Assembly: GCA_010093815.1 (NCBI GenBank)
Contig: ML996596.1
DNA: 64,000 nucleotides
Direction: 5' to 3' (one strand)
DNA from: Pseudovirgaria hyperparasitica
Taxonomy: Eukaryota
Each line of letters begins with the position of its first letter. Position 1 is the stretch's first letter. Both the position numbers and the translations under genes were made by a program. Shown piece by piece: positions 17,559 to 61,585 of this stretch. A model generated the notes under the pieces. The model was given only the letters and a program-made list of their open reading frames with translations. It made no database searches and had not been told where the DNA came from.

Positions 17559-17902
17559 TAAAGATAGTATTATTTATTTTCTAATATTTTCTTCTATATT
17601 CTTTCTTACTTTCTACTCTATATATTATTCTATACTATCTTCTATCTACTTTATTATAGAGAATATATAAAGTCTATTTTAAGTTCTAAGAAGTAGATAT
17701 CTATTATATATTATTCTAATTAAAAATAAAGTAAAAGAAAAATATTAGAGTTAGAAGAATTATCTTTAGATAAGGATTAGTCTTAGAGTTTTAGATAAGA
17801 ATTAGTCTTAGAAGCTTAGATAGAATAATCTTAGAGTCTTAGATAGAGTAGTCTTAGAGTCTTAGATAGAGAAGATAGGTTATAGAATTAATATAAAACT
17901 AC

Positions 17903-29532: not shown

Positions 29533-29690
29533 TATATACTTATTTCTTAGAGGTATAGCTATCCCCTTATAGTAGTAGCTTTAACTATACCTTTTAGTTA
29601 TTCTATTATTCTAGAGATAGTCTACTATTCTACTAGGTTACTATTCTAGAAGAAGATTAAGGTTATATTTATTATAATAGAAGAGTTTAT
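29533..29690 (-). mobile_element. Short old LINE fragment (ORF1 C-terminal region)
   Basis: Matches ~59957-60112. Confidence 0.7.
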
Positions 29691-38324: not shown

Positions 38325-38564
38325 TGTTAGGGCTAACACTAGGATGGACTTAACTAGAATACTATGGTCTAGTACGGTCCATGACAGGTGGACCTAGGGT
38401 AAGTCAGCTAGAATAAGCGAGACCACTATATAAGTAGGCCGTATACACTTAATTCCTACTCTTTAGGAATCAACCTCGTTAGAAGAGTAGACTACCCTTT
38501 TAAATATATTCCCGAATCCTCCTATGACCTATTAGACTACTATCCTACGTCTATAATCCTTATA
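38325..38564 (+). repeat. Gypsy-1 5' LTR
   Basis: Starts TG. Direct repeat of 57537-57776. Confidence 0.93.
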
Positions 38565-38605
38565 TTTTAATTTCTCTTTATATAGCACGACGGTAGTTCA
38601 TAGAA

Positions 38606-39988
38606 ATGGCTCTAACTACTCGTCATAACACTCGTGGCACCGCCTCTTATAGTAGACCTTCTCCCAACCTAAACGAGGAGAATAGTCTACCTATAACTAC
38701 CCCTACCGATAACTATACCTTATAGGCTATCGTACCGATAACTCGCACGACATTCCGTATAACTATAGAAGATATTATAGAACACGAGGATGGAGTCTAT
38801 TATACTCTATCTTGGTCTAGTTTAAACTATACTAGACCTAACCTTAACACAAGGCTAGACCTTATTAACGTTAACGAGTTAATCTATTAGAATCGCCTAA
38901 CGTTAACTACACCTTATAATAACGTATATACTAGACTACACGAAGAGAGGTAATAATAGGTTTAACTCGAGTAATAACTATACGAACTCGACGAAGCTTA
39001 AGGACGTACTACGAGACTTAAAGCTACATTACGCGCTTTAGTTCTAGTAATAACTAATCTATATTCACATAGACCTATACCAACTAAAACGATCCATCCT
39101 AGTCTACTACTATCCCAATTACCCCGACCTAAGAAACCACCTTACTTTAATAGTAAAAGTAGAAAGAGTTTCCACGTATAGGCTTACTAATATAGCCGAT
39201 TCTTCTATCTATTCACGAACGACAGCGATAAAATTAGATTCGCCTAGAACTACCTTAACCCGATGCCTTTAGAACGTTAGATGGTATACTAAATTAAACA
39301 TTCTAAGGATGCCCATAACTAGGACACGTTCACCGAATTTCTCCTCTAATATTTTGGCGATAGAGCTAAATAACGCGACTAGGCCTAGGGCCATATCTTC
39401 GAGACTCGATAACGAGATAATTAGTTACCGTTATAACTCCTTAAATACCTTCGGCCCCTCTAGAGAGAAGCCGAAGAAGATTATATAATTCGATAGTATA
39501 ATAACTTTAAACGGTCTCTCGCCCTAAATATAAAGAACCGTCTCGACCTTATAACGATAATCTCTATAGACCTCTAAGCTCTTATAAACCTCGCGGAGCG
39601 ATACTAGCGTATAATAAATAATTAATACCGCGCTAGTACACGACTATCTCTAACGATCTAATCTAATATAAAATCGTCTAACTAAAACTAATTTAGTAAT
39701 AGATCTCGCGGGACATTACGAGGCTACTACCACGCCTTAAATTCAAAACCACGCGGATCGTATCGTGGATCTCCCTACTAATCGATACATCGAGATACGA
39801 GGACCGACTCGCATAAACGACCCAAAGTTACTTACTATACCTATAGTAGAATAGACTATATAGTACCTAAGTACCGTTTAGGGAAGCTACTAAGTGCTAA
39901 CATAACTAACTAACTAGTTATATACTATAAGTGCTAGTAGCTAGGATATATCGCGCCTAACTACCTAGCATAGAATATAAAAAACTAA
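38606..39988 (+). pseudogene. Gypsy-1 gag with two CCHC knuckles
   Basis: ATG at 38606. RIP-reverted CYTC....H....C (~39833) and CYKCQQLGHIAPNC (~39923). Ends at aaaaaacTAA. Confidence 0.75.
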
Positions 39989-42900
39989 TAGCCTATAAGA
40001 AACCCTCGCGACTTATAGGCGCGACTATAATAGAGGGGTAATCCGCTAAATAGTATATCGAACTATAGACTAGACCTATCGAGGTCCCTTATGGATAATA
40101 TTAGACCGTAATACTTAATAGTGGTTTAGCTACTAACGTTATATCGACTTAACGAGCACGAGAACTTAACGTCGATATTTAAGTACTAATAGATACTACC
40201 TTCCATAGTATCGATAGTCCTATTAAATCGCAGGGTACCTATACCATTAAATATAGTATCTAGGACAGCGGGGGGAAGTGGAAACCCTACTACTTAACCT
40301 TTATCATGGTAGATAGTCCCTTTAATATGATCCTCGGTATACCGTAGCTCGAAAAACATAACCCGAAACTAGACTTCATCTAGAAAACAGCTAGCTGGCG
40401 TATATACCTACTATAATGGAATCTAGTATAGCTAGTCGACGACGAATAATTCTAGAAGGACTATGAAAAGGTAATCTCCGCTATCTACGTCCTCTTACTT
40501 ACTTAAAATAGAGAGCTTAGCATTAAAGTAGACGAAAACCTACTACATTAGTATAAAATGTACTAATATGTCGCGTTAGCGATCGACTCGTCCGAATTAC
40601 CTTAATACTAATCTACTAACCTTACTATTAACCTCGAAAACGGTTAATAACCCCTATACGGACCCATCTACCCTCTATTAGAACCCGAGCTATAGTTCCT
40701 CTAAGAATACATTGAAAAGAACCTTACGCGAGGATAGATTAGGCCTAGTATATCCCTAGCCGGAGCTCTAATCCTCTTTATAAAGAAGAAGGATAGGAGT
40801 CTCCGTCTATGTATCGACTACCATAGCCTAAATAATATTATATAAAAGAATCATTACCTACTACCTCTTATCTCCGAGTCTATTAATAGACTAGGGCGCG
40901 TGAAGATCTTTACTAAGCTCGATCTACACGACGCCTACTACCGCCTATATATTAAGAAGGGTAATAAGTAGAAAACGGCGTTTAGGACCCGTTATAGATA
41001 CTTCGAGTATATAGTGGTCCCTTTTAGACTAACTAACGCGCTAGGAACCTTCTAAGCGTACATTAATAACGCGCTAGTAGGCCTACTCGACACGACGTGC
41101 ATCATATACCTCAATAACATCCTTATCTTCTCTAATAATAAAGAAGAACACATCTAGCACGTACACGCAGTCCTAGATAGGCTAGAAAAACATAAGCTAT
41201 ATATTAAGCTATCTAAATACGAGTTCCACTAGGACCACGTTAACTTCCTTAGCTTCGTTATTACTAATTAAGGTATAACCATAGAAAGAGACAGGGTCGC
41301 TACTATCGTGGACTGGCCTAAACTAAAATCGGTTTAAGATATACGTGTCCTTATTAGATTCGCTAATTACTACCGAAAATTCGTTAAGTACTTCTTCTGT
41401 TTAGCCGCACCACTTAATGCGCGTACTACTACCACCGACTCGTCTATTACGGTCTATGGTAGATAGAAACAGCGTAATATTAAATTATAACCTATTAAAT
41501 TAACTAAGGTCGAAAGAACATCCTTCGAGAAGATTAAAGAAGCATTTATAACCGCCCTATTACTAGTGTACTTCGACCTAACCAAACCTATTCGCGTTAA
41601 AACTAATGTATTAGGATTTATAATCTCGGGTATACTCTCCTAGCCTAGACTAATAGAGTCTAAAAAGGTCTAATGGTATCTAGTTACGTTCTTCTTACGC
41701 AAGATAGCCGACGTCGAGACTAGATATACTATTTATAACTAAGAGCTGCTAGTAATAGTAGAGTCGTTCAAGCAGTAGCGACATTATCTTAAAGGTACCA
41801 TATATAACATTAAGTTACTAACTAATTACTATAACTTAAAGGGGTTTATAAGTACGATGGTTTTAAATCGTTAATAGATCTAATAGACTAAGTGGCTTAT
41901 GAACTTTTACTTTATAATCTACCATCGACCTAGAAGTATAAACCTAGCTAATAGAATATTAAGAAGACCTAACTATAAAGAAGGCGCCTAGAATTATAGT
42001 AGCCATAGGGTCCTAGAGTAGCTGTAGGCCTAACTCTTAAGGATGAGGTTAGATTTTAAGTTATTAGGCGATTAGCGAGATACTAACGTTAATGCTAGTA
42101 ATTGAATCTCTAAGACCGAAGCCGGTAACTAAAGACGCGGTACCAAAGTCCCTAGTAGGCCGTTTATTAGCGCTATTAGGAAGGGCGATAATGCCCAGCG
42201 TAAATATCTAATTAACCTCGCCTAGTTAATCGTAGATCTATAGAAGATAGACCCGATAGTTTTAAAGTTATATAAAATATAGTAAGATAGGTTATTACGG
42301 ACTAAAGTAGACTATAAGTAGACCTTCGTAGACGGCTTGCTTTACTACGATAGAAAGTACTATATACTAATAGGTAACGCGCGATTTAACGTAGTTAGCT
42401 AATACCATAACGCGAACCTAGTAGGACACTTTAGGTATGTACGTACCCTAAGCTCAATTCATTAGTACTATTTTTAGGAAGATATACCTAAGTACGTCGA
42501 AGAATAGATAGCTACTTATCCGATTTATTAAAGAACGAAGGCCCCTAGGCATAAGCCATATAGGAATTTATAGCCTCTTTTAGCCCCCCTCTTTATATAG
42601 AAAGACGTTACTATAGATTTTATAGTTAACTTATCTCTAAGCGAGATACTTAGGATAAGTTATAATTCTATTCTTATTATCGTAGATAGACTTATAAAGA
42701 TATCTAGGTACATCCTAGTATAGAAGACGATTACATCTAAAGAACTAGCGTAGATATTCTAGAATAAGATTATTAAGGTCCATGGTATACTAAAAAGGAT
42801 CGTTACGGACCGAGGAAGTACCTTCACGTCTAAATTCTAGACGTTATTCTACGAAATGGCAAGCATAAATAGAAATATATCTATAGCATTTCATCCTTAG

Positions 42901-43830
42901 ACGGATGGCTAGATAGAGCGATAGAACTAGACGCTCGAGGCCTACCTACGCGTATTCTATAATTTCGAGTAGGACGACTAGGCCTCCCTACTAAGTATAG
43001 TAGAGTTCGTATATAATAATAGTCGTTATAGTACGATAGATATTATACCTTTCTAGGCGAACCTCGGACGTAGTCTAAGGATAGGTTTTAAGCCTTAGAC
43101 GGTCTAATTTAATCGAATAATAGACGTGAACGTCCACGCTTAGGAATTAGCGATTAAAATCTTCAAAACCGCACGTAACTATCGCACTATAATCTAATAA
43201 GTAAACGACTCGTATACGAAGTACTATAATAGGTTAGCCAAGGATTAGACGTACGAGGAGGGTGATAAGGTCCTTCTTAACGTCCGTAATATATAAACGT
43301 CGCAAGTAAACAAGAAGCTCGATTATAAAATGGCTAGTCCCTTCCGAATTAAACGTCGTATCGGTATAAGAGTCTACGAGCTCGACTTAGAAAGTAATAT
43401 AAGAATCTATAACGTGTTCCACGTCTTACTACTCGAAAGATTTCGACCTAACGTGTATGGCCGCACGAACGTATAGTTACACTCTATTATACCCTAAGAT
43501 AGACTAGGCGTGTTCGAAGTAGACCATATTATTAAACATAGAATTAATAAAGACGGTGTTTAGAAATATAGAATCCGTTAGAAGGACTACACTAAGGACA
43601 AGGATACCTAGGAACTAGCGGTATATATCTTAAGTTCTATAATAGCTACGTATAAGTAAAAGATATAGAATAGCGTATTATTAATGTAAGTATAGCGACG
43701 TCGCGGTCGTTATAAAAAGAAGAAGGATGCCGTAGAGAACGAAGTGTCGAATTACGAATCCCAAACGCATACTAGGAAAACTCTATAAGGCAGCCCTATA
43801 ATTCAAGCGATACACGGTTACCAAACGCGA
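39985..43830 (+). pseudogene. Gypsy-1 pol (protease-RT-RNase H-integrase-chromodomain); ends approximate
   Basis: LNSG (ancestral LDSG, ~40114), YLNNILI (ancestral YLDD, ~41107), KTNV (ancestral ETDA, ~41598), GHF (~42424), VTDRGS (~42802), FHP.TDG..ER (~42890), FEVDHIIKH..YRIR.KDY..DT.E (43513-43615). Confidence 0.92.
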
Positions 43831-44299
43831 AGAAAACGTAAATAACCGTTATAGGCACGCGACGCGATATATTATAATAGAATAACATAGAGAAGTCTAG
43901 AATAGACTAACATGGACCATTACACACGAGAAGAACATGGGACTAAGAAACCAAAAAGGTACCCCACTACGGAATTGAACTCGTAACATATAATATAAAA
44001 GGTTAGAGTACCCGAACTAATAACTACTAGGCTACTAGTTCGGGTGCTCTAATATAATTTAGAGAGATAAACCAATTTATATACGATGCCTACACTCAAG
44101 TAACTTAAAGGAAATTAGAACCTAAAATTCAATAGTCATAGAACAAACAAGAACGCATATAATATCATTAAGTTAAGAATTAAATTACTAGAAAACTAGC
44201 AGACGGGTATCTAAACGGTCTAAAAAGGACTAAAACGGACAGAAACCAGGTAGATAGAGCCAACACACACTACACAGAAACCCTAGCAAATAGAGTTAT

Positions 44300-45229
44300 A
44301 GAGCTACTCCTCTATCTCATTATTACTCTTAGAGCGTAGCGAACGAACTAACCGAGTAATAGAGCGACGGAGGTTAGAGACCTTATCCTCTAGAGTAACC
44401 ACGCGCTTAGTTAGAGCCTAGTAAGACAACGACTAAGCGCTAGAGCAGAGCGACTAGACCTAAAGTTAGCTAACGCGGTCTAGAATAATCTAGAATAGAA
44501 TATATACCCTCTTACGAGGCGACTTAGAGGGAGAAATAGTAGACCTCTTATAAGATTCGTTAGTAGCGCGAGACGGATAGGGGGGGATAGAGTGAATCCT
44601 CTCTACGGCCTCTATAGCTAGGATAGACTCCCTAGAATAGATAGCCTAGGCGCTAGGGATCTCGCGGCGGCTAGAAAAATCAATAGGTATTAAAAACAAT
44701 TAACGTGCTTATAACTTACACTTTAATAACCTCTAGGAAGAGCTTATAGCGCTCCCTAAACTCCCTCTATATAGTAGGTAGGCGGCTATAAGGACCCCCG
44801 AGGGTCTTACGGACGCGAAGGTCGTTATATATATCTTATATACGCATAGAAATCTAAGAATATATTAGCGCGGACTACTTTAGATTATACTAGATTAAGA
44901 CAGCCTATTATACTTACCTATAGACAAGTCTTACTAGTCACGGTATAGCGGCGGTAGCGGGTAGGGAGCTTAAAGATTAGGCGTATAGGCCCGTCGCGGT
45001 TAGTAGAGTAGTAGCTAATGCTAGAGTTAGAGCGGAAGAGATATTTAGAGCCGGTGGCGTAAGCCTTAATATACTTAAAGCATATCGAACCGTAGTTCGC
45101 CGTTTTCCTATAGCGTAAACCACGACTACGTTTAGTATCTTCGGCGACCTAGGCCTTATTATTACTAGGGCTAGGTTTAGAGCGAATATTAAGGTCCTAA
45201 AAGGACCTAGAGCGACTAAGTTAGTCTAT
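44300..45229 (-). pseudogene. 3' part of an antisense accessory gene in Gypsy-1 (Cys-rich, with introns); end approximate
   Basis: In frame with 56668-57049 once Gypsy-2 and one TSD copy are removed. Intron 44917-44854 reads GTAAGT..GCTAAT..TAG. Confidence 0.65.
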
Positions 45230-45601
45230 TATAGTGAGCTATCGCCACGTGTATCCCTTTTATAAATGGCTATGTTCCTAGTATAGTAGTTGCGACGAAC
45301 TCATAAGTATCTCTCCTAGGTATTATGAGTTCTCTTTGAACGTACGACTTCTTATTAGTTCTCTTTTACGATAGGACGGGTCTATATAATACTCTTAATT
45401 AATTCTTTAATAGCTAAGCCTAATAATTAATACCCATAGAGGCCTATAAACGTAAGGAAAGGTTAAATAGTCGAATATTAGTAATGGGGGAAGCGCGCCG
45501 AGTAGAATGACCAAGGAAAACGCACTCCTTAAATATATAATAAAGCCATGTAATCGAGCTAGGGACATATATATGTGGGGCTATAGGAGCGGCCTTCTAT
45601 A
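45230..45601 (-). repeat. Gypsy-2 3' LTR
   Basis: Direct repeat of 56296-56667. Confidence 0.93.
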
Positions 45602-45799
45602 TATACCTCCCCGGCCTATAGAACTACTACCCTTAGTAGTATAGTAACCGTGTAAGAAACCGTGTAAAGAACGCCTAAAAGAAAGACCTTAATACGAATA
45701 AAATGCGCCCCTAGTAAACCTCTCGGCGCGGGTAAACCTTAGCCTAGATTATTAGTTAAGGGCAGCCCTTAACTAATAATTAGGTAGGTTTTTAGGCGC

Positions 45800-48733
45800 C
45801 TAATCTTAGTACTCGAGGTCGCGAGCCAGCTTCTAAAGAATCGTATCACTTATCTTAGAGAGGTTAGATTCCTTCTCGTCGGATAGTTCGTTAGGCCTCT
45901 CCTATCTATAGAAGTTCTCTTTAACGTTATCTAGGCCCGCGTTAGACTCGAATTTCTTAAAATTAATTAGCCGCTTAGCGGCGCGCGCCTCGTTAAATTC
46001 CTTCTAGAACGACCTATCCCTATAGACCAGCCTTTTCTACCTTACTATTTTCTTAAAGGTCTCCACAAATACCCTCGAGCCCTCCTTAAACTAGGCGTCT
46101 ACCTTAGCTTTAAGTTATTAAGGACTTATATTAAGCTACGCAGCTACCTCTTCTTTTACCTTCTAGCTATTCTATCTTTTACGGCCGACTAATGCGTTAC
46201 TAACGGCGTTAAAACTCGGGAGTTAAACTACGGCTAGGAAGGTAAAAGGAATCGCGCTATATTTATTAGAAAATCCTAACGGAGACGTAGGCCCCGGAGT
46301 TAAATTCCTATAAGCTACTACGAGTTGTTCCTATGTGCCCATTTTAGGCACTTCCATTATCATGTGATTAGGGCCAATCGCGACATACCATGGAAGTATC
46401 GTACGTCTTCCACCCTTTGCGGGACCCTAGGCGCCGTGTATTATTAGTAGGCTAGAGATACGCACTTTAAGGGACTAGTAGGGGACCGGGACGAAGGGAC
46501 TAAATCGTTTCTTATCGTCCGTATTATAGATCTTATTATTAATAGCCGTAATTATACCGTTTCGATTAACCCCCTCGCGGAGCTTAGCCTTCGACTACTA
46601 TTTATTTAAGAACTTATAGAAGCGGGGAACGATTATAGTATAGTCGTTACTTCGTTCGTTGTCGAGACTAATACTCCCCTAGATTATATTAAACCCGTAT
46701 CTATCGCTAGGATTAAGGATTTGATTAATGGCGTTGTCGAGATACTTAAAACCCGTCTTATCGCCCCTATCCTAGGACTTTACATAGTACGGGTACGAGA
46801 TTAGATAGTAGTTAAGATCGGGCCGAAGAGCGATATAGGTGAGCTAGTAAAGTAGGCATTACCTAATAAACTATTAGATATAGGAGTGGTATATAGTTCG
46901 TAGCTAGCCGTAGTTCGATTTCTTATTAAATATACGCTAGTAGTACTTATATATATTAAATTCATCCCTCGCGAGTTCTAGAATACTCTTATTAAGTATA
47001 GAGGTCGTCTTTTTAAGTAGCTCGAAGAGCCCTTTAATATTAACACTTCCGGTACGTTCCTACTCGTCGAAGAGTTATCTATCTATTCTACCATCCTCCT
47101 TCTAAATCATAAATACGATACTAGTAAGGATGGTTTTAATATTAATAACTTACTTCGGGGTCTCTAGGGCCTAGTAATAATAGACACCTAATGCCTCTAT
47201 CGGATAAGGTGGCCGCGCGTACTTCGTGAACCAGGTATAGCGGTCCTTATAAACTTTAAGGGCCCCCACGTTATCTCTAAACTTATATACTATTTTAAGT
47301 CTCGCTACTAGGTTTAAGTAGGACACGCTAACGAGCATATCATTCTTTCTAGCCACGTCTTAGTAATACTTATAGTAGACTTTATACGGAACAGCCATGT
47401 TACCTATCTACGCTTTCTAGCGTACTAGTAGGGCTATTCCCTTAATGCTCGTGAAATTCTTCTTTAATAATGTAGCTACCTTAAAAGTCTTCGTTACTAA
47501 AGGCGTGTATTAATACTTCTTAGGCTCGTCCTCTTCCTCGACCGATACTATCATCTTAGAGTACGAACTAAGAATAACTAGGGATTATCGTGTAGGCGCC
47601 CCTAGTAATTACTAAGGGCCGGTAGATAAGGCATGTCTACGAGTGGGTTTTGTCGGTATAGCTATAATAAGTACTAAAGAGGTTCTCGTATAGCCCGGTA
47701 AGGGACGTATACTAGTAGTAGTAGAAGGAATACTTACTTTAAACGGACGACTAGCTTCGAAGAGATAATATACTACTAAACTAGAAGGCGTGCTTCGTGG
47801 AGGGGACTTCACCATAGGCGTTACCTACGCTGGTTTTAGCGACGGTAAGGTCTAAGGCGGAGGCGATATACTTATCTCTTTGATTTATAGGTAGTATTCG
47901 ACGGGCCTATGAACCATTCTACTTATCCGTAACTATTGACTGGCGGGGATAATAAGTCCCGTCTTATTATGGAACGTTAGTTCATTTTATCGGCTAGGGT
48001 AGTTCGAGAGTTACTAGAGAGATAGACCGTCCTCATTACTATCGCTGGCTAGGGCGGCATCGATATTAGAGCTCTAAAGATATGCCTTGATTCCCCTTCC
48101 CTTCTATCCCTAGCCGATTCGGGACTATAGAGATACGTTTAACTAGTTCCTCGCTCTCGCCCATGTCCGCATTCGTAAGAGCGCTACTAGCTTTTCTATA
48201 AAGTTCTATATTTACTAGAGCTATCCGAGGGCGGATTAGAGTGACTAGCTATTATTATTAGGGAGGTCTTTTCGCTAGTTTTATAGGATTGCATTTTTAG
48301 CTTTTAGAATGCGGGAGTTAGTGTCTCTTCCACAACGAATTATCTCGTGGACTTCTTTCGGAATAGAGGAGTTAATCTTTACCTTACTATACCCTATTAC
48401 GGCTTCTACTTCCTAGAAGAGGTTAACTATACTACTTAAGAGCTATTCTATAAGGCTAGTGATATAAAGGAGATCATTAAACGTGTCTAGAATATAGTCC
48501 TATCGCTCTTGCGGGTCCTAGATGGCGATAATTCGGTTAATGGTGGACTCATTTACTTCTATAGCTTCTATAGCCTATCTATATAGAGTAGTAGATGGCC
48601 TCGATACCACGATAGCCGTCGATAGCCCTACTTTAGCACTCACGACTCTTAACTAGGACCGCGTCTATCTTATTAGTACTTAATAATCTTATAACTCTTT
48701 ACGGGTAGGCGTTTTCTTTTTCGGCGGGGCCAT
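45800..48733 (-). pseudogene. Gypsy-2 extra ORF3 of unknown function; 3' end approximate
   Basis: Starts MAPPKKKTPTRKEL at 48733. Only RIP-type TAA/TAG stops in the N-terminal ~90 codons I translated. The rest was sampled only. Confidence 0.6.
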
Positions 48734-49399
48734 TATTATTATTAGTTCTATCGGCGAGTTACGTTCTAAGGAGAGGTAGTTAAGTAAGGCGGAAGTAGAG
48801 GAGGAGGTTTTATTAATTAAGGAGGTATAGAGAGGTATAAGAGGGAAGAGTTATATACTATCTTAAGTTCTATTTTATGCCTCCTCGAATGCCGGGTATA
48901 TAGTAATTTTTATAAATGATCCTTACTAACGGCCGTAGGCCCGTATACGTGTCGAATCTATAAATGAATATATACTAGGTACATAGGAAATCTATGAATG
49001 AATGTATCTACTAGGTATATGGCGGAATCTATGAATAAATAGATACCGGGTATATTCTCATCCTTATAAGACTTCCTATAAGTATCTTTTTCTTCTATAC
49101 CTCCTCCTTCTTTTCTTCCTTATTAGTTCCTAACGGGGCCCGTTCTATAGTAACGAAATAGGCCTTCGATAGGTGGGCTTCGATTACACGACCGGCTTTA
49201 ATATATAGTAGGTGGAATTCGCGTAAACGCCATTATGTCTTCTTTCGAGCATTGCTTACTTTAATAATAAGTTTTATCATTTTATAGTAATGATAGGGTT
49301 TATTATCCTCTTTTAATGATGGAGTTCATCGTCCTTTTTCGATAATAGAGTTTATCGTTATAAGACTACTTTTATAAGTATCCCTTCCCTCCTTAAAAA

Positions 49400-52300
49400 A
49401 ACTTCTATCCCCTAGAAGGAGATGTCGATTCTAGAGAAACGTAAATATTCTTCTCTATTGAAGTCTTATAGAGTAGAAATTACCACTTCTACCCGGGTTC
49501 GTATAGCGTCGTTAAGGTATTCCGTAAGTTATTTATAATAGTTTTCCTTATCGCTACTCTTCTTATTTTCCTTAGTAATTCTTCTAATTAGTAGTCGCGA
49601 GGGCTCGTCGTAACTCTCGTTACTTATATTTCTTATAAAATATTTCTTTAACCTATGGCTAGGAAACGTCCCTCTAAGCATGGCTCTATTAAGCTCCGCG
49701 AGCTTATAAGTATAATTAAACACGGACTAGATTCTATATGGCCCCCTCTAATGCTACCTTAGCTTCCGCCCTATGTTCTTCTATCGCTACGAGTCGTATA
49801 GAAGGATAATCGTATCGACTAGTAACGACTCTTAACGAAGGTAATGGTCGTTATTCCATGCCTCTCTCGATTCCTTACGCGTTCGTGTCGCGTAGATATA
49901 GGCCTCCTTAAGATCCTCGGATCTTCTCTTAAGTTATCTAGCTCGAAGAGTAAGTAAGTCGGATGTCGATCGCACCTCGTCCTAAGGGAGTATTCGGAGC
50001 GACTCGAATTCGACTTCGATAGGCATGATTAGTTTATAGCTAAGCACGAGGTATATAGTACTATACCCTATACTAGCACGTGTCGTTATTCTATCTACCT
50101 AGATAACCGCATGGAGGTGGCCGGGCTAGTTCTTAAATCCGCTATTAGTTATCTTCGTAAGAGCATTAGCGAGTAGTATAAAACTTCTCTTAATAATTCT
50201 ATTTACTCGGGGATTATATATAGACGTAACCTTCTAATAAATTCTATAGAGTCGGAGGAGCTCCTCTATGGCACCTATATTTTCTCTACCACCATTATAG
50301 GTAATTTTAGGAATGATTCCGTATCTATAGATTACGTTCTTAAAGAGGAACTTTACGACGACTATAGACGTGGCCGCCGTACATGCCTCCGCCTTAGTCT
50401 ATCCGCTTAGCTATTCTCGTATAGATACTACTTTACTATACTCTATAGAAGGTGGTAGCGTCGTTACGTCTAAGTATATTCTTTACTAAAGAATAGACGT
50501 TATAACGTGGTAGAGCCCTTTATTAAGACCTCTAAGAAGTTTACTTTATCGTTAATATTCGTTATAGGTTTTCACGTACTATCGCACGTCTCTACGTATA
50601 TCTACCTACTAATACTTATCCTTAATCCTTCTAAGGGTCCCTTCGCTATCTCTATGATCTATCTTATTATAAGTAGTAGTAATTATACACGCCCTAGTAT
50701 TCGGATCCTTAATTACTCGTGTGTGTTAGCGATACCTATCTTCTCTCTACTAGAGTATTCGGTCACACACGAGGAACTTTAGATAGTTAGTTATAAAGGC
50801 CTTATACGCTCGGTCGGTTAGGTCGGTTAGCCTCTTAAGTATAGTAAGGTACTTCGTAATCCTCTACCATTTATCGCTATATTTATCTATTAAGGGAGAC
50901 TTAATAGCGGTATAGTTGAGTATCCCTATCGTGTAATCTCTCCCGCTAACGGGCTTAATTAACGACGTCTCTAGTACGTCTATATATAGAGCCATATCCA
51001 CGAACTCGTCTAGGTTAAAGGTAGAGACGTCTAGTAGTTCTTCTCCTTCGTATATCCATAAGATACCATCAGCGACTACGTTACGCTTCCTAGGTACGTG
51101 CCTAACTATAAAGTTCTATAGCTAAATCCACGCGAGCCACCTAGTAACGAGCGCCCCTAGTAAGTTAGTTACGGTATAGTTAATTTAAGTAACTAGAGTA
51201 TTCGCGTCTATTTTTATAATAAAGTACGTGCTATAGAGATATTACTAGAACTTCTATAACGCGTGGAGGAGGGCTTAGTACTCTAGCTTCACGGTGTCGT
51301 AGTTTCTGTTAGCTTTTAACTACATTCCTCCATTATACCGCGATAGCTAACGTTTACGATTCTCGTTCTCCTATATTAACGTAGCTCTCTACCTAACGTT
51401 ACTAGAGTCTACTACTAGGATTATGTCTCCCGTACCTATCCTATACCGTAACATTATTAGTATAGGAGTAGTGGTTAGAGCTATCTTTAGCGCGTCCATC
51501 GAGGTCTACTTCTTAGCTATCTACTACTAGACCGATTTATTCTTTAATAGTATAAATAGCGGTAATATAATAATAGCGTACCCGGGGATCTATATCCGGA
51601 AATATATATAAACGCTAAGGAAGGCTCGCACATTCGTCGTGTTTTTATAGGGTTTCTAGTCCCTAATAGTAGTAACCTTTTTATTACTCGGTCGCCTCCC
51701 TTTAATATCGTAGACGTATCCTATAACGTTAGCGGCTTTAACATACTACTAAGTCTTCTTACTACTTAGGGCGTATCCGGCGCGCTCTATATCCGCGAGA
51801 ACCTTATCTATGTTAATTAAATGTTCTAGAATATACCTACGAATTCTAGGCAGGGCCTCCTTAGAGTTATATTTCGTCGTAGGTCCTTTAATATCTAAGT
51901 CATCTAGGAATAGTAGAGCCCTCTCCGGGATGTGTTCTTATATAATAGTTAATATAATTCTAATAAACTAAGCTACTAAATTAGTAGCCCCTTAAGGTAA
52001 TATTATCCCGCGTAGTAATTCTAGGGGCGTTATAAACCCCGTTAAGTCTTAGTAATACTCTACTAATAGAATCTAATTATATCCTAAGAAGAAGTTGGTA
52101 AACGTTAAGACGGCTATCCCCGTAAAGTGCTCCGAGAACTCTTTACACGAGGGCGGCGTGGCCGTATTACGAATAGTGACTCGGTTAATTTCTATCGCCG
52201 AATTGATTAACCTATAATCTCGTTCCTTATTAGCTTCCTTCTTCTTTTCCACGAGAAAATAGGCGTTTTAATAAGGACTACTATAGGGCTCGAGCCTTCC

Positions 52301-55300
52301 GCTATTAAGACGCTCTTTTAGGATTATGAGTACCTTCCTATAAAGGGCTCTAGGAATATTAAAGTTCTTAGCCTACTATACCTTATGTTCTACCGTTCGG
52401 ATCTCCTACGGAGATGCCACCTCTTTATTAAATTTACTAAGGTATAAGAATTTCTATGCTAGTACTTCCTCGCGATATAATAAGATTATATATAGTAACT
52501 TAAGTTCCGCGGGACGTAGCTCTATTCTAATCTTTAGCTAACTTATACGTAGAGGCGTTAGACGTGTTCCTAGCGGGATAGTTACCCTTCAAGGCTCTAT
52601 TAGCCTACTAAACGCGTTAAGGCCTAGATAGACGGCCAGAAGAAGTACCTACCGTGCGATTACTCGTTCACGCTAGTCTAGATACCCTAATAGATTCCTA
52701 GGAACCTTTCGGTAGACTTCGGAGTCATCTACGGGGTATACTTTAACTCCCTTTCTTTTATACATGGTAGCCATATTAAATCCCTTTAATACCCCGGATG
52801 AATACCGTCTTTAGAGGCTAGTAGAGCCTACTATAAGCTATTCTATTATCGTGCCTTATTTATGTACGAAGGCAGCGTACCTTACTACCGTAACTAGGGC
52901 GGCTAAGTCATCTTTTCTTAATAACCGAGTAACATTTTTAGGCCGGATTTTCTCGGAAAGTAACTCTATATAACTCATTTCTATATCCGTATAAAAATAT
53001 AGCCTATCCCCTTCGTTAGTAGGTTTACCGGACCCTATTTAGTGCGGATTATTAGTTAAGGGTAGCCCTTAACTAATAATCCGGCTTAACTCCGGCTTCT
53101 AGCGATATACTCCGCTATATAGTTAGTCTCTAGCCACGGAGTTACCCTCCTTCTCTAAGACTAGAATATACTTATCCGGACTAGTTTCGAAGGTTACACG
53201 TTCTTATCTATATACGGAGTAGACTATTAAGAGTACTTACCCGGAGGCTAACCTCTATACTATAAGTAAGGCCTATCTAGTATATGGCTCCCCTAGAATA
53301 AGATTATAATTAAGTTCGCTATACACGAATATCGAAGTGGCCGTAACGATCCGACCTATATAGATAGGGTATTACTATACTATTCCTACGAATAGAGTAC
53401 TATACTAAGTAGCGCTAACTAAACTCGAGTTCTTTATATATGGTAGAAGCGAAGATATCGCTAGCCTAAGACGCCTCGTAGCATCTAGTCGAATACTATT
53501 TACCTATGCGCTACTATCGAATAGTACTATACTAGTCGCCCTTTTAGGACTAACTTCCACGGGGTACCTTAGATACTTAGCCACTAGCCTTACTATCCCT
53601 TCCTTAAGCTAATTAATATCTTATTACGTGATGGCCGTCCCTATGGCATAGAGGGGTACTAATACATTAAGTTTATTTATCTTAGAAGCCATAGTATAGT
53701 CGTTTCTTTCTTTCTTCTCGGCTCTCTCTTCTTAAGTCTTATAGACCTCTCTAGCCATGAAGTCGGGGGCGCCCTTCTTAAACACCGTACGATATAAGTT
53801 ACTATTAAGGCTTAATAGTTTACTAATAGTAATGTTTATGGTTATCCCTAGAACGCGCACTAGCTATGCTTCGCTAGCTTCTATACTTAGCCGCTATCCT
53901 TCGCGTAGATAGTTATTAAGCTTAACACCTCGGATACGTGCCTTTTGACTAGGATTTAGGCTATCCCCTTCATCTATCTTGTCCTCCAGCGCCGTTGGCT
54001 CTTATTTAGACGTTCTCTAGTCGCTACTCTTCTCGCCGTCCTCCTATTCCTTAATAATCCTTATATACTACCCTTTACGCATTCCGCGGAGGCGGGCGAT
54101 CTTTCTTTCCTTAGTATAATTAGGTATACTCTTCGTGATCCCCCTTCTAGATATTACGAGTATAGCGGGCTCTTCTAGAGCTATCTCCTTATGGATATAT
54201 CTATTACTAGCCACGTCGAAGCGTTCGTAGAATTCTATATATCTATCTTTCTTACTCTCGGGCGATATAACTTCTTCTTCTAAATCGCTATCCGCCGAGG
54301 CCTAGTAGGGACCCTTCATAGGTTTTATACTAATACTATATACCGGCACTCCCTATAAAGCGTTAATGTTTACTACGGACGTAGAAACCTTTACTCCTTC
54401 TCCGTACTAGCTTAGGCCGTTTTAAACCGTTACTATATAGTTTCGGATAGCTTATAGAGTAGCTTATAGCCCTACCGAGGAGGGTAGTAATAGGATTTCT
54501 TCTCCGTTCGCCCTAAAACGCCCTTAGAATACTCGTACCCCGTTAATATTTAGTAATCCGTCTCTAATATATTCTACTATCTCCGGATATCTATATATTA
54601 GGTGATCTCCTCCGTACGTAATATATACGATCGGTCTTCGAGGCCTATCCTAGGCCATAACGCCTCCTTAGAAGTCTTAGGTAGAGACGTATTCTCTATT
54701 CTATATATAATTCTATGGATAAACTTACGTTAGTTCTATGGATATGCCTCGTACTTAGGGATGTACTAAAAGATTTAGCCTTCGCGCCTACTAGTTAATA
54801 ATAGCCGAAAGTAGCTTAGGTTCGTACTTCTTAAGGGATAGGAATAAGGGATTAGAGGTAAAGTAGGACTTTATCTTAATTAACGTGAGGTCTAGTTTAC
54901 TAAATCTCTCTACTATCTCGTTAAACTTGTCCGATTCTAGCGCGACGTGTACTACGACTAGAGAGGGGTAGTTAAATTTATTAGTTCTTCTTTCTTTATA
55001 TAACTACTCTTCTAAGCCGGTCTTCTTACTCTCTATCTTTAATTTATAGTATATGGCTATGGCTAGCTCTTGTGCGGCTAAGTACTTATTAATATAAGCG
55101 AGTTCCTTAAGTGCTCTAGCCTTTCGTAATACGAAGCCATAGATAATTACCTAGTCGTAACTATGTACTTCCATCGTAAGTTAACATTTCTCTATAGCCC
55201 GAGCCTTAAGACTATTAGGCAGCCCTTCTAGGAAGAGCTCTATTCGCGAATACGAGCTTAGGCTTCCTTTAGCCGTAAGTTTCTCTATAATAACACGATA

Positions 55301-55985
55301 CCGGGAGTAGTACATAGGGAGAGAGTAGGATAGGTCTACTTTAACCATTTCCACGTATTTTCGGATAAAGTGGATGGTGCCTTCCTCGAGGGTAGAGTTA
55401 AATAGAGAGAATTCCTTTAATAATTCTTCACGTAGCGTAGCCTACTACTATTTCTAAAACCTACTTATTCCTTTAATAGTAGGACGGAGATAGTCCTCGT
55501 AGTATGACGGTAGAGAGGTTATCTTCTTATTAGGCGGAACTTCGTAGTTTATATACATGTCCTCGTACTTCCGAAGGAAGGCCGTAATATTTATTCCTTT
55601 AAAGCGCTCGGGGGCTAGGGTAGATAGAGGTACTATCCTTCCTTATCGCGCAAATGCTACGAAGAAGTTAAGTATCTCTCTACGAGTTACTAGGTTGTTA
55701 TTTTAAGCTCCTATCGCACTATTACTAGTAGTAGGTATACTAGTGGAGACGCTAGGGGTAAGGTTATTAGTTAAGGGATTACCTTAACTAAAGGTTGGCC
55801 TAATGCGTCTACCTATAACACCTATTATCCCTTCTCTATGTTAACTAATCCCTTTATAAGGTGAACTATTACTATCGTCTTCATTAATATAAGGTTCACG
55901 GTATTCTACTTATGTTATTATCTTCGTGTAAGGCGTTCCTAAAGTGGTATACTCGTATAGCCGTGTTTATAAATAATAGCTATAG
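49400..55985 (-). pseudogene. Gypsy-2 gag-pol; ends approximate
   Basis: Gag APERFKGINITAFLRKYE (~55560-55617), protease VLFDS(G)AQVN (~53500-53528), RT LFLDDLDIKGP (~51881-51913), RNase H VDSSNV (~51395-51412), integrase YNPRVNRIIKR (ancestral YNPRANG..ER, ~50185-50218). Confidence 0.88.
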
Positions 55986-56274
55986 TAGCACTAAATAGAT
56001 TATATTTGTCGTTTTTGAACTCTTCTTTACTGCTTCATCTAGCCCTATTTTATATCCTATTCCCCTAAGACATTTTCGAGTCGCGCTATCACCCGTGTTA
56101 GTATGCGCATGCTTTTTACGGCTACTTTTAAGAGGCTAGCCCCTAGCGACTCCGGACTCCCTGTTTTCCGGACTCGTGGCTTCGATCTAGTAAGTCTAGA
56201 CTACCTTATTAGGCACGCCATATACTTCCCCTAAGCTAGTTTCGGAGTCCTAATCTCCCCCTATAAGTTCGTAG

Positions 56275-56291
56275 TCCGGGTACGACCTCTA
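56275..56291 (-). promoter_or_regulatory. Primer-binding site of Gypsy-2, probably for tRNA-Gln
   Basis: + strand tccgggtacgacctcta reverts to tccgggcacgacctCCA, 4 nt from the 5' LTR. It resembles my recollection of the 3' end of Pezizomycotina tRNA-Gln (not verified). Confidence 0.55.
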
Positions 56292-56295
56292 AAAT

Positions 56296-56667
56296 TATAG
56301 TAAGCTATCGCCACGTGTGTCCCTTTTATAAATAGCTATGTTCCTAGTATAGTAGTCGCGACGAACTCATAAGTATCTCTCCTAGGTATTATGAGTTCTC
56401 TTTGAACGTACGACTTCTTATTAGTTCTCTTTTATAATAGGACGGGTCTATATAATACTCTTAATCAATTCTTTAATAGCTAAGCCTAATAATTAATACC
56501 TATAGAGGCCCATGAACGTAAGAAAAGGTCGAATAGTCGAATATTAGTGATGGGGGAAGCGCGCCGAGTAGAATGACCAAGGAAAACGCCCTCCTTAAAT
56601 ATATAATGAAGCCATGTAATCGAGCTAGGGACATATACATATAGGGCTACAGGAGCGGCCTTCTATA
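56296..56667 (-). repeat. Gypsy-2 5' LTR
   Basis: Direct repeat of 45230-45601. Confidence 0.93.
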
Positions 56668-57049
56668 CTATATTAGACTAAAAAGAGAAACGGCGTTTAG
56701 AGCAAGGCGGCGAAGGCGTAAACTCTCGATTATTGTCTACGACAAGATCTTCTTCATCCTCTAAAGGAGGTATAGTAGATAGGCGGCGCGAGTAGGTGTA
56801 GGTAGGCTTTATAGCTACCTCTTCCGTAACACTAGTACTAGGATTACCTAGATTAGAGCGACTAGTGGCCACGTTAGTGGTAATAGTAGTAGTAGCCTTA
56901 GCTACCTTCTTCTCTAACTTAGAGCGCGCCTTTATACTACTATAATAAGTGGATTTTTTAGCCGGTATAGCCGGGGTAGAGATAATCCCTTTAGAGCGAG
57001 TCTTACGAGAGGAGGAGGTAGACTTAGGAATAGAACTAGTATTAGACAT
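56668..57049 (-). pseudogene. 5' part of the Gypsy-1 antisense accessory gene (S/T/K/R-rich N-terminus)
   Basis: ORF 56678..57049 MSNTSSIPKST. Its TAG stop is RIP-type and the frame continues at 45225. Confidence 0.65.
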
Positions 57050-57536
57050 CTATATATATACGTTAGCTAGAGGTCTAAGAGTAGAATACTTATTTAGCCT
57101 TAAAGGCGATTAAAGAAGCTAAATTAGTAACCGTAATAACGCGAATAGATTACATAGAACCAGCTCTAATAAAAATAGACTACTCTAGACCCGAACGGAT
57201 CTAAACTAAAGGAGATAGTATACGAATTAACGACTTACCTTAAGAGTAAGGTAGATATACTAGAGAAGAAAATTCAGAATAAGAGAACTAAATATAAGCT
57301 TAGTTAATATAGCGGTTATATAACCCGCGGAGCTATCTCTAAGGTAGTAGCTATGAAGTAAGGGATAAGCGTATATATAAATAAAAGTAAACTAGAGCTT
57401 AAGTTTACCGATATAAAGACTATCGATAACGTTACATAGATTTAATTAGATGCGCGTATAAATATAACGCTTATAGAATTACGGATTTATATATAGCTAA
57501 GTGCTTCGGGGCGAAGCATAAAAAGAAGAAGGATAT

Positions 57537-57776
57537 TATTAGGGCTAATACCAGGATAGACTTAACTAGAATACTATGGTCTAGTACGGTCCGTGACAGG
57601 TGGACCTAGGGTAAGTTAGCTAGAATAAGCGAGACCACTATATAAGTAGGCCGCATACACTTAATTCCTACTCTTTAGGAATTAACCTTGTTAGGAGAGT
57701 AGACTACCCTTTTAAATATATTCCCGAATCCTCCTATAACCTGTTAGACTACTATCCTACGTCTACAATCCTTATA
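57537..57776 (+). repeat. Gypsy-1 3' LTR
   Basis: Direct repeat of 38325-38564. Confidence 0.93.
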
Positions 57777-60700
57777 CTTACCCCCCTTAGTAGTCTATTT
57801 CCCTTAGTAGTTAATAAAGTATATAAGCTAGTACTTTTTAGATATAAACTTTACTCTATAGCGCTTTACCTATTAGATATATCTCTTATAGTTCTATTTA
57901 AGACGCCTATATATCTAGCTAGTATTATTATTAATAGTAAGGAGATATATATTATCTATATATTACGTTCTCTAGAGAAGGTCTATAGTAAAGAAGAGAA
58001 AGAGAATTAGAGAGATAGTACTTCCTTAAGGAATACTATATAATATTTTTTTATATTCGCTATAATATCTAGAAATATATATCTAGATAACCCTTTTAGT
58101 AAGGAAGGACTATATAAACTATATAATCTACTCTAGTATACGTCTCCTCTATAGATTATAGATAAGTCTAGTATAGTTTATCTTATTAAATATACTAGCT
58201 ATATTAAGGGAGAGTAGCGTTACTATATATCTCTATTTCTATATTTATAGTCTAGATAACTTTAAGGATATATTAGATAGCGGTAATTAGAGAGCTACTA
58301 GTCTTTATCTTCTAGTTTACTAGAAGAAGACTATATACCTATACTATAACGCTTATCTTCTTCGCGATTATAGCTTCTAGTATCTTTCTAGGATAGAAGA
58401 GAAGGGTAATTAGTATCTAACCTTTTAGAGAGCTAGGATTCTTTTCTAGTTTCGGGAGTATAACTATATAGATAGCTTAGAAGCTTTAGAGATAGTATCT
58501 ATTCTTAGCGTATACCTAGAAGATAAGATTAATAAGCGGTATAGTTACCCGTATAGTATATTTAAGGTACCTATTTAGTATTCTATCCGGCCTAGATACC
58601 TTATTATTAGAGAGCGCTTTAATAGTATTAAGTATATTCTCTTTAGTAATCTTCTAGGGAATATCTATTAGATCTAGATACTTAGTATCTTTAATATTAG
58701 ATAGGTCTACTAGTTCTAGAAGGGGGAATATAACTTCTCGTAGAATCTCTATCTTCTTCTAGCTTATAGAGTATATTCTTCCTTAGTATATTAGAGGAGG
58801 TATTAGTAGTAGTAATACTAGGGTATTAGTATCCTTAGCCTACTTAGCTATATACTATAGCTCTATAGTTTATTATATATACTTACTAGTAATTATATAC
58901 TATTATTTATGTTATTTATTAAGGAGGGTTTAGTTATAATATTATACTATCTCTTTCTACTTATTCTATGCCTTAGTTATCTAGATATAGTATATATATA
59001 TATATATAGTCTATAGGCCTCCCGTCTATATTCTTATATCTAAGATATACCCCTTACGTCTAGGGGTCTATATAGTTAGTATAGTACGTGTTTATCTCTT
59101 ATATTCTAGTATACTTAAAGGAGGGTTTATACGGCTTTATTAATAGTAGGGCCGTTAGATATATTAACTATAGGGGTATCTAGAATCGCCGATTCTAGAT
59201 TCTCTAGATAGTTATCCTAGTTAGTATCCTTCTATATCTACTTTCCTTATTAGTTATTAAGAGTAGAGACGTCTATTATAGTCTCTATATATTTATAGTT
59301 AGAGTCTATCTATAGTAGGCTTAGGTAGTAGTATTATACTCTATAGCTTATATAGTTAGTAGTAAGTATAAGGTCGATAGTAGATCTATCCTTATTCTAT
59401 TTATATCTCTTCTATATAATCTATTCTATAGATATAAGAAGGTATAGGAAGTCCTAGTATCGTATATATAGCTCCCTTACTCTAAGTTCCTCTCTAATAA
59501 TAGTAGGGCCTCTCTACTATCTATAGTAGAGATTAAAGTTACCTAGAAGGATATATTCTCCTAGTATTATAGTATCCTTAAGTATATTATCTAGTATAAG
59601 TAATTACTATTAATTATATATATTATAGATATAAAGGGGCTCTATACTTATCTAGAGATATAATATTATCTAGAGGTTATTACGTTCGGTATAGGACTAT
59701 TCTAAGAGTAGAATTAACTTATATATATAAAATATTACTCTTCTATCTCGGCTTATAGGGTAGATAGTATAGTATTCTAGATATATTATTAGCTTATTAG
59801 TTTAGTAGTACTTATATAGCTCCTAGATAGTAAGTATTATAGCCCTAGTTTCTTTAAGGAGTATCGCCTAGTTCTCTCTTTTATACTATATATTTACCTA
59901 TATAATTTAGAGTATATTATAGTCCCTTATTAGATACTAGAGAGTATATATATCTATATACTTATTTCTTAGAGGTAGAGCTATCCCCTTATAGTAGTAG
60001 CTTTAACTATATCTTTTAGTCGCCCTATTATTCTAGAAATAGTCTACTATTCTACTAGGTTACCGTTCTAGAAGAAGGTTAAGGTTATATTTATTATAAT
60101 AGAAGAGCTTATAGTAGATATTATATTTTATAGCTATATTATATCTCTTACTTTTATTATATAAATATACTTAGTAATCTATCTATATTTATTATATATT
60201 AATAATTATAATGGGTATTTTCCTTTATAGTTTAAATACTATACTATATTCTTATTTCTTAGTCCGTCTTCTTACGGTTTATAAGAGTATTTCTAGATAG
60301 TATAGTCTCTATAATACTAGCCGTATTTAGTCTTCTATAAATACTATTATATAGTATAGCTATACCCTTAATAGTTAAAGTACTATATTATTATCTATAC
60401 TCTATTCTATAGTTTAGCTATAAAAAGTTTATCTTCTATAAGGAATCCCTTCTATATAATATATTATATAAGGGTAGAGTCCTAGAGCTATATAATTATA
60501 GTAGAGTATTTTTTAATCTTTGCCTTAATCCCTTATAGATTCTTCTATTATACCTTTATAATCTTAATCTCTAGATATTTTTACTTCTTAGCTTATTCTA
60601 TATATAAAAGATTCTCTATACTAATAGTCTATCTCTATACTAGTACTATATATATCTATATTAGATATATAGCTATCTAGATAGATACGCTAGGGAAGAT

Positions 60701-61541
60701 ATTATCTATCGCGTTTAGATTACGTAAGATATTCTACTATACTATATTAGTTATAGTAGTAAGTACTACCCCTTCTAGTATAACTTTAGTAGCTATAATA
60801 TTTAACTATATTCTCTTCTATTTATTTATCTTATTTATAATTTCCTTTAGAGATACTTATTAGATCTATATAAGGGTATTCTTATTCTAGATTATAATAT
60901 ATACGCTATATACTCTATCTATAATTCTAGTAGTCCTTAGGGCGGTAGCTCTAGATATAGCTATAATCTATACCTACGTATTAGGGCGCTTATCTTAGTA
61001 TAGCTCTTTCTAAATCTATCGTAAGCTAGCTTCTATTCTATTAAGTCTATTATCTAGTTCTCTTTATAGTAATTTCTATAGTAACTTTCTCTCTTCCTCT
61101 ATAAGTTCTCTTAGATTCTAGATAAGATCCCGGAATATATAGAGAAGGGTCTTCTTCTCTTCTACCGTATCTTTCTCTATATATATTATCTAGTATTTAA
61201 TTTTATCTATAAGGGTCTCCTCTCTTAGAGTCCTCTTAGACTTAGTTATCTATAGTATTACTTACCCTTAGTTAGTTTCTATATTTTAGATAGGTATTTA
61301 ACTATCTATATTAATATTACTATATAGCTATTTCTATTATACTAGTAGGGGTATTTCTAGTATATACTAGGGTATAGCTATATCTAAGGCCGCTATAGTT
61401 ATTAGTTAAGGGCTATCCTTAACTAATAAAAGGGGGTTAGTATATTAGTATTTATTAGATATAGTCTATACTTATATTATTAAGGGGTCTTCGAGCGTAT
61501 ATATATAGCTTCTTTATATATTAGTATTATTATATACTATA

Positions 61542-61585
<44 letters not shown>

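Follow-up and report, generated by a model that had tools for sequence, protein, structure and literature searches.

Does a RIP-damaged fungal retrotransposon encode a protein on the strand opposite to pol, and what might such a protein do? The question is raised by a minus-strand open reading frame in a 64,000 nt stretch of Pseudovirgaria hyperparasitica DNA (referred to as the window), located between pol and the 3' LTR of the element Gypsy-1. A preliminary description made from the sequence proposed that a chromovirus carries here an accessory gene, antisense and spliced. Our analysis supports this proposal; the Cys motif of the gene is common to undamaged relatives, and we have little doubt that the gene is real.

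Host element and structure of the antisense gene

The elements at the locus are as follows:

38320-38324 and 57777-57781: target duplication of Gypsy-1, 5 bp (CTTAC)
38325..38564, plus strand: 5' LTR of Gypsy-1, 240 nt (LTR pair 94.6% identical)
40000..43680, approximate bounds, plus strand: Gypsy-1 pol with RT, RNase H, integrase, SH3 and chromodomain (Pfam)
45230..56667, minus strand: nested Gypsy-2, 11.4 kb, which splits exon 1 of the antisense gene; CTAT copies on both flanks
about 45230-45601 and 56296-56667: LTRs of Gypsy-2
57537..57776, plus strand: 3' LTR of Gypsy-1, with a purine tract just before it

Gypsy-1 is a Ty3/Gypsy chromovirus, as seen from its LTRs and target duplication, the order RT-RNase H-integrase and the C-terminal chromodomain. 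Its pol is disrupted by RIP-type stops. Pfam analysis confirmed the proposed type of host element by matches to RVT_1 (E 4e-21), RT_RNaseH (5e-11) and SH3_Tf2-1 (4e-14). The Chromo match (E 3e-4) has 21.2 bits in this damaged copy, below the curated cut-off of 25.1, and PF00385 is carried by close RT relatives of Gypsy-1.

The genome of the species contains 123 matches to the antisense gene, and 118 other copies were compared. Uninterrupted copies join both sides of the Gypsy-2 insertion with a 4-nt overlap, so that the frame does continue once Gypsy-2 and the CTAT duplication are removed. The resulting gene model, with an ATG at 57049 as originally placed, has a predicted product of about 379 residues:

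57050..57238, minus strand: 5' UTR intron, 189 nt, acceptor abutting the ATG (GTAAGT in 98 and TAG in 114 of 118 copies)
56668..57049, minus strand: 5' part of exon 1, with the ATG and a basic region of low complexity rich in Ser, Thr and Pro
44918..45225, minus strand: 3' part of exon 1, holding the Cys motif
44854..44917, minus strand: coding intron 1, 64 nt, phase 0, two codons past the last Cys (GTAAGT..TAG)
44720..44853, minus strand: coding exon 2, 134 nt
44671..44719, minus strand: coding intron 2, 49 nt, phase 2
44508..44670, minus strand: coding exon 3, 163 nt, its C-terminal end a basic cluster, NLS-like by inspection
44454..44507, minus strand: coding intron 3, 54 nt, phase 0 (donor GTATAT in 103, branch GCTAAC in 108, acceptor TAG or CAG in 107 of 118 copies)
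44304..44453, minus strand: last coding exon, 150 nt; its C-terminal helix is rich in heptads, and TAG at 44306-44304 is the probable stop

Two introns had been claimed and four were found, the 189-nt intron of the 5' UTR and the third coding intron of 54 nt having been missed. The canonical 64-nt intron (44917-44854) is as described and has this length in 29 of 29 copies; its position is the same in the related elements L161, L162 and L163. The second intron, suspected near 44721-44671, exists with corrected bounds (44719-44671), and its donor reads GTAAGT in 13, GTGAGT in 2 and ATAAGT in 95 of the 118 copies. The in-frame TGA noted earlier indeed lies inside it. The statement that RIP cannot create this codon is not strictly valid, because CGA-to-TGA changes occur among the copies. 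Of the 118 copies, 23 have ATG at the start codon and 90 have ATA. An additional intron within the Cys motif, suggested by an ACTAAC, was ruled out since no AG follows it in any of the 29 copies viewed.

Stop density is lowest in the model frame, among all six frames, for three of the four exons. Frame-breaking indels between lineages are confined to the region past the TAG at 44306-44304, and the hydrophobic share of a/d positions in the last exon is 0.75-0.83. The copy in the window is dead through RIP and the nested insertion. A promoter within the 3' LTR of Gypsy-1 or close to it would drive antisense transcription, and the introns may persist because they sit on the strand opposite to the genomic RNA.

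Cys motif and intact relatives

The sites of the motif (codon starts, with Cys in the window at 45082 and 44926 only) are:

45082, 45073, 45013, 45010, 44956, 44947, 44926, minus strand: Cys-site codons

Of the five Cys residues proposed initially, four were recovered, being present in 6, 11, 8 and 8 of 118 copies. The other, the second Cys of the second CxxC, was never seen and is TAT (Tyr) in 117 of 117 copies. Between the CxxC units we found a previously unnoticed Cys-Cys pair, with Cys in 2 of 118 copies for each residue. A consensus keeping Tyr had been counted against the Cys reading. Tyr is the majority residue at every site, but this is no refutation, since RIP is directional. The same Tyr majority, together with the inflation of TAT, TAC and TAG by RIP, could also mean that there is no gene at all, only non-coding DNA in which RIP produced Tyr codons and GT-AG signals arose by chance. 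This explanation was confronted with undamaged elements.

L161, L162 and L163 are among the closest RT relatives (69-72% identity to the RT of the window, 70% for L163), and the RT of the window groups with them in a quick tree (SH-aLRT 93). None of the three is damaged, and each has a gene in antisense of the form CxxC...C...CxxC-x5-7-C with an intron two codons past the last Cys. Their spliced open frames have 266, 284 and 286 residues, respectively. The coding-intron phases are 0, 2, 0 in L161 and L163, as in the window gene, thus including agreement for intron 3. In L162, neither the third intron nor the C-terminal helix is present. Candidate 5' UTR introns are found in L161 (196 nt) and L163 (134 nt).

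The spliced model of L163 is identical to an independently annotated hypothetical protein of Stemphylium lycopersici (KNG50449.1, RAQ98632.1, RAR00529.1; here P0136). This protein resembles that of the window in position, candidate 5' UTR intron, phases, Cys motif and helical C-terminus. It differs in its length (286 against about 379 residues), in lacking the long N-terminal region and in showing no significant sequence similarity. The identity of model and annotation and the conserved splice signals would fit a transcribed and spliced antisense gene. Further, a scan of 1.26 Mb on both strands for CxxC-x4-9-C-xx followed by a donor gave seven matches. Four of these have an upstream CxxC, and three of the four are L161, L162 and L163, in antisense orientation after pol. 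With the scan picking out clade relatives and one model equalling its annotation exactly, the non-coding explanation is largely refuted and very improbable.

Beyond Cys spacing, the window protein and its relatives have little in common. The spacing is 2-19-18-2-6 in the window by codon position, 2-14-22-2-5 in L161 and 2-16-12-19-2-6 in L163, which has an extra Cys. MAFFT alignment across the families did not bring the Cys residues into register, and hhalign of the window motif against L163 was not significant (probability 1.2%). Homology to the relatives is therefore argued from position, intron layout and Cys pattern. It appears that an accessory protein is inherited with these elements, and its intron layout is found again in the intact relatives. 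A gene wrecked by RIP is thus tied to intact, annotated counterparts, so that its function can be tested on the natural protein KNG50449.1. Some 'hypothetical' fungal proteins are accessory genes of retroelements.

Copies in the genome and selection

Most of the fetched loci of sufficient length, all retrieved as matches to the gene, have it beside pol in the same layout; among such loci, the gene is present in most copies of the family. All fetched matches are element-type copies. Matches with 52-78% identity, considered as new families, proved to be mostly copies with heavier RIP.

Two lineages (55 and 40 copies) differ by indels of 9 and 3 nt in exons and of 1, 2 and 35 nt in intron 2 and the 3' region. 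Selection was examined by transversions, which are beyond what RIP can cause. Fixed transversions at codon positions 1, 2 and 3 number 21, 19 and 34, a third-position excess with p=0.016. The third-position share is 46% for the antisense gene, 81% for pol and 59% for gag. Splice-critical sites are changed in 0 of 36 cases and other intron sites in 22 of 318, which is the right direction in numbers too small to count. Overall, selection on the gene is weak.

Exons diverge about as fast as introns (74/1130 and 22/354 transversions), as would be expected if the antisense transcript matters mainly as RNA, through interference or self-limiting dsRNA, with a protein close to neutral, for example a captured host gene in slow decay. 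A cellular origin of the gene would also agree with its four introns. Against this stand the open frames, Cys pattern and intron phases kept across elements with little else in common, and the absence of a host paralogue among the inspected part of the 123 matches. We regard a role of the RNA instead of the protein as unlikely.

Putative function and known systems

The reading that we favour is that of an accessory gene inherited vertically in a clade of ascomycete chromoviruses. The predicted protein would begin with a basic N-terminus of low complexity, followed by a six-Cys motif with long loops, a helical middle part, a basic cluster and a zipper-like C-terminal helix. It probably binds zinc. 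It may also enter the nucleus and there target, in trans, the DNA or chromatin of its own family, either to activate transcription or to counter silencing; such a nuclear regulator of its own element is a reasonable candidate role, with the odds slightly against it. Should it hold, fungal chromoviruses would be 'complex' retroelements with a trans-acting factor. HBZ of HTLV-1, an antisense zipper regulator expressed from the 3' LTR, and VANC of Arabidopsis VANDAL, a transposon-encoded anti-silencing protein, are functional analogues only, with no sequence relation implied. The most specific version, a fast-evolving, non-canonical six-Cys zinc-cluster protein of this clade which recognises DNA of its own family and counters silencing or activates the LTR in the manner of VANC or HBZ, with intron positions fixed over long distances, is a tentative proposal that we would not expect to hold in every part.

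An extra antisense gene in a chromovirus is already known. Boty/BcGypsy1 of Botrytis cinerea and Sclerotinia carries brtn (PMC7264820, PMC8365987, PMC4227169), which according to passages of these papers is likewise antisense and placed after pol and before the 3' LTR; its host, too, is an ascomycete Gypsy element with chromodomain. The likeness is one of description; the passages mention no Cys motif for brtn, and its name is absent from two text supplements of PMC8365987. The weight of the present finding is limited by this known layout and by the dead state of the window copy. Titles and abstract openings, drawn mostly from outside the subscription literature, describe no six-Cys antisense gene in fungal chromoviruses.

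Passages of PMC7264820 also describe antisense aORFs in plants (Grande gene23, RIRE2, Retand, PvRetro13), located between pol and the 3' LTR in most copies; gene23, which is nuclear, is equipped with a promoter of its own. They belong to plant lineages, and their reported SMC and transposase 28 domains were not found here. The function of antisense extra genes of LTR retrotransposons is not established according to the same passages, which propose for the aORFs a helper role in the replication cycle. For the window protein this could mean bringing the integration complex into the nucleus, exporting RNA or assembling particles, and the basic clusters and coiled-coil-like end are compatible with an adaptor. 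However, 21 of 26 related elements examined have no such antisense frame between pol and LTR, so that the gene is dispensable for the core cycle, and we consider a helper rather improbable. Among viral contigs, 14 distant RT relatives (42-48%) were found, and all seven with the span examined lack such a gene.

Alternatively, the protein may act on the host, for instance by influencing development or by behaving as a selfish factor. A parallel would be REP9-1, encoded by a DNA transposon of Zymoseptoria, which contains DUF3716 and lowers the number of pycnidia (passages of PMC8232023). Fast evolution relative to pol would agree with this, as would two leads from the ESM Atlas obtained with a Cys-retaining copy: clusters of hypothetical Ascomycota proteins at 0.86 and a cluster at 0.79 with DUF3716 in 28% of its members. 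Scores below 0.9 are weak evidence, however, and hmmscan gave no match to DUF3716, nor to DUF8257 and DUF8414, two families that the Pfam set used may lack. An action on the host is accordingly judged about as improbable as a helper role. A score of 0.77 with a Tyr-rich copy was treated as noise.

Other searches with the antisense protein gave no assignment. Pfam (E up to 10) returned no family, including Zn_clus, for the own copies and the Cys regions of L161, L162 and L163/P0136; the scan of P0136 gave one unrelated match (E 0.27). No match to the protein or its relatives was found by PDB sequence search, nor by Foldseek at E 0.001 or better. An HMMER search of 1.84 billion representatives, for which 14 copies of the Cys region with RIP damage served as query, yielded one tandem-repeat protein, which was rejected. 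With eight copies as query, a word-seeded search for longer proteins accepted 0 of 1620 candidates and a metagenome scan 0 of 261. Single-sequence AlphaFold2 models (no alignment) gave no confident structure for the Cys region (pLDDT about 30 and 43); the C-terminus of an intact relative is modelled as long helices (pLDDT 66-91).

The zinc fold suggested for comparison was Zn2Cys6, with the spacing Cx2Cx6Cx5-12Cx2Cx6-8C. Like the GAL4-type proteins (PF00172), the predicted window protein has two CxxC units, each followed by one more Cys, in basic surroundings, as well as a helix of zipper type. It departs from this type in several respects: the canonical spacing is absent from the window, L161 and L163, with 14-19 residues instead of 6 after the first CxxC, the zipper is far from the motif, and Pfam Zn_clus gave no match. 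In L173, a more distant element, the Cys spacing is 2-6-9-2-7, with a Zn_clus match at E 0.088.

Structure and decay of the antisense gene

The window DNA consists of repeats, in a genome of 35.4 Mb. RIP signatures are strong (TpA/ApT 1.7–2.2, (CpA+TpG)/(ApC+GpT) 0.04–0.27 in 30 copies). RIP converts TGY to TAY, and CAR or TGG to stops. In the own-genome copies CpA/TpG is almost wholly lost, and CpG is also mutated by C-to-T and G-to-A changes (CGA or CGG to TGA, TAA or TAG) in about half, for example at exon 1 codons 126 and 131. The chromovirus Gypsy-1, with pol domains RT, RNase H, integrase, SH3 and chromodomain (Pfam), carries the antisense gene between pol and its 3' LTR; a second element, Gypsy-2, interrupts exon 1.

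38325–57776, + strand: Gypsy-1 (LTRs 240 nt, target duplication CTTAC)
45230–56667, − strand: Gypsy-2, nested in Gypsy-1, flanked by two CTAT copies
57238–57050, − strand: 5' UTR intron of the antisense gene (189 nt), acceptor directly before the ATG
− strand, from the ATG: four exons of 690, 134, 163 and 150 nt
− strand: three coding introns of 64, 49 and 54 nt, phases 0, 2 and 0

A protein search of the own genome gave 123 matches to the gene, and 118 distinct copies, excluding duplicates and the window copy, were aligned. Uninterrupted copies join the flanks of the Gypsy-2 site with a 4-nt overlap, which confirms the join and reading frame of the preliminary description. The spliced reading frame runs to about 379 codons and probably stops at 44306–44304. 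The two introns proposed earlier stand as the first two coding introns, but the 5' UTR intron and the third coding intron had been overlooked. The earlier proposal also depended on conserved splice sites; most of the 118 copies share the donors, branch points and acceptors, G-to-A changes aside.

The model frame has the lowest stop count of the six frames in exons 1, 3 and 4 and the second lowest in exon 2, and exon 1 is open over 229 codons in one copy. At seven exon codons, 80% or more of the copies have a stop; five of these codons read CAG, TGG, CGA or CGG in a few copies, the other two in none. Insertions within the antisense gene also occur in other copies, of about 0.95 kb in intron 1 (L073, G000:C30) and about 0.55 kb near intron 2 (L091).

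Cysteine sites and intact relatives

The reversion to CxxC...CxxCx6C suggested in the preliminary description is supported at four of five sites, where Cys survives in some copies: 6 and 11 of 118 for the first CxxC, and 8 of 118 each for the first position of the second CxxC and the last Cys. The second position of the second CxxC, however, is TAT in 117 of 117 copies. Nineteen residues beyond the first CxxC, both sites of a Cys-Cys pair have Cys in 2 of 118 copies; ten residues past that CxxC, Tyr is found in all 118. As the two stop columns without an unmutated codon show, the lack of surviving Cys at a site is compatible with RIP, though no proof of it. Intact relatives have Cys at the place matching the TAT position. 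As a natural control, L175, a RIP-damaged member of the L162 family, has Tyr in place of some of the Cys residues of L162.

With the damaged Cys region as query, no relatives were found by HMMER over 1.84 billion representatives, word-seeded protein search or metagenome scan. An RT-based metagenome scan, of which the best 80 of 582 relatives were taken, led to 79 loci. In a quick RT tree (94 rows) the window family clusters with L161 and L163 (SH-aLRT 91) and with the L162 group (93). In these three elements, relatives at 69–72% RT identity, RIP bias was not detected. Each has an antisense gene downstream of pol with CxxC...C...CxxC-x5–7-C, and they share with the window gene a phase-0 intron two codons past the last Cys.

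The spliced open frames of L161, L162 and L163 encode 266, 284 and 286 residues. In L161 and L163, three coding introns repeat the phases of the window gene (0, 2, 0), the last exon is heptad-rich or helical, and there are candidate introns in the 5' UTR; L162 contains only two introns, both of phase 0, and lacks a C-terminal helix of that type. The L163 spliced model, built before the database entry was looked up, is identical to the annotated Stemphylium lycopersici hypothetical protein KNG50449.1. An artefact is very improbable. Since sequence similarity of the proteins across families is below significance, homology is based on position, intron layout and Cys pattern.

Among 26 elements with the pol-to-LTR span examined, an antisense frame with two CxxC was present in four (L161, L162, L163, L173) and absent from 21; the damaged L175 is one further element. 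The sequences of L171 and L174, in the same clade, are not long enough to cover this region. In L173, a more distant Gypsy, the ORF (L173:1228-700, − strand) follows the pol end, is intron-free and has near-canonical six-Cys spacing (2-6-9-2-7; Zn_clus E 0.088), then a coiled-coil-like stretch. It may represent a second type of this accessory gene.

Constraint and possible function

The 118 copies form two lineages, with 55 and 40 unmixed members; the other 23 copies are mixed or partial. Mosaics are frequent, about 16 of 118 copies passing from one lineage class to the other within the gene. In its 5' part the window copy (44300–57049) is like lineage C, around introns 1–2 like lineage B. Fixed transversions between lineages number 21, 19 and 34 at codon positions 1, 2 and 3 (p=0.016), and exon indels are 9 and 3 nt long. 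For comparison, six full-length copies gave 4/6/43 for pol and 37 of 63 at one codon position for gag. An observation against constraint is that exons diverge about as fast as introns (74 of 1130 vs 22 of 354 sites). Purifying constraint on the antisense gene is real but weak, with a rate of evolution about four times that of pol. A function at the RNA level with a near-neutral protein appears unlikely.

The antisense gene is a real accessory gene, dead in the window copy. The data show its structure, its inheritance along with the element and weak purifying selection. Introns on the antisense strand stay in the genomic RNA and are not spliced out. Our tentative reading, the most likely of those considered but short of even odds, is that a promoter in or near the 3' LTR would drive a spliced antisense mRNA, and that its product, predicted to be nuclear, zinc-binding and probably dimeric, would act in trans on DNA or chromatin of its own element family. 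Rapid change on a fixed scaffold is consistent with target recognition specific to the family or with host conflict. A factor acting on the host is rather improbable, and so is a helper of the replication cycle. PMC8232023 describes a DUF3716 protein that is carried by a transposon and has a phenotype in the host.

For the trans-acting protein we favour, a mode of working like that of PF00172 may apply by analogy, although the window gene lies outside this family by Cys spacing and by Pfam. Support from a fold was not obtained: Pfam, PDB and Foldseek searches gave no matches, and modelling yielded no structure for the Cys region.

The gene is one of a class of extra ORFs that lie antisense to the element, 3' of pol and before the 3' LTR. 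Such ORFs occur in plants and in Boty of Botrytis and Sclerotinia, with functions given as unknown (PMC7264820). PMC8365987 and PMC4227169 place brtn in a chromodomain-bearing element, and PMC2864245 mentions fungal elements with additional ORFs of unknown function. Literature searches turned up no paper whose title or opening abstract lines describe a six-Cys antisense gene in fungal chromoviruses. Added here are a four-intron model, intron phases common to elements whose RT is about 70% identical, and an intact protein known by name (KNG50449.1) that is open to testing.

Other features of the window

Gypsy-2 has a single long sense-strand frame of about 900 codons 3' of integrase (about 48430–45700, − strand), beginning with a basic MAPPKKK motif. 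Both the window and copy L244 keep it in one frame, the genome has at least 40 copies, and Pfam gave no match. It seems to be another extra ORF, unrelated to the antisense gene. Several unrelated elements spread over the window share a palindromic 33-nt motif (GGGCTGCCCTTAACTAATAA type).

45747–45780 and 53047–53081: palindromic motif
near 339–371, 5790–5822, 9900–9933, 19163–19194, 20428–20460, 29259–29291, 35320–35354, 37159–37190 and 61399–61429: further sites of the motif
17086–17572: tandem array of an 11-nt unit, about 36 overlapping copies among the matches listed
324–5382, 9865–13200, 20178–24726, 25952–35593, 37145–38322 and 57780–61560: another repeat family, several copies of 5–6 kb

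Copies of this last family are 70–94% identical and lie in both orientations; Gypsy-1 is inserted within one of them.
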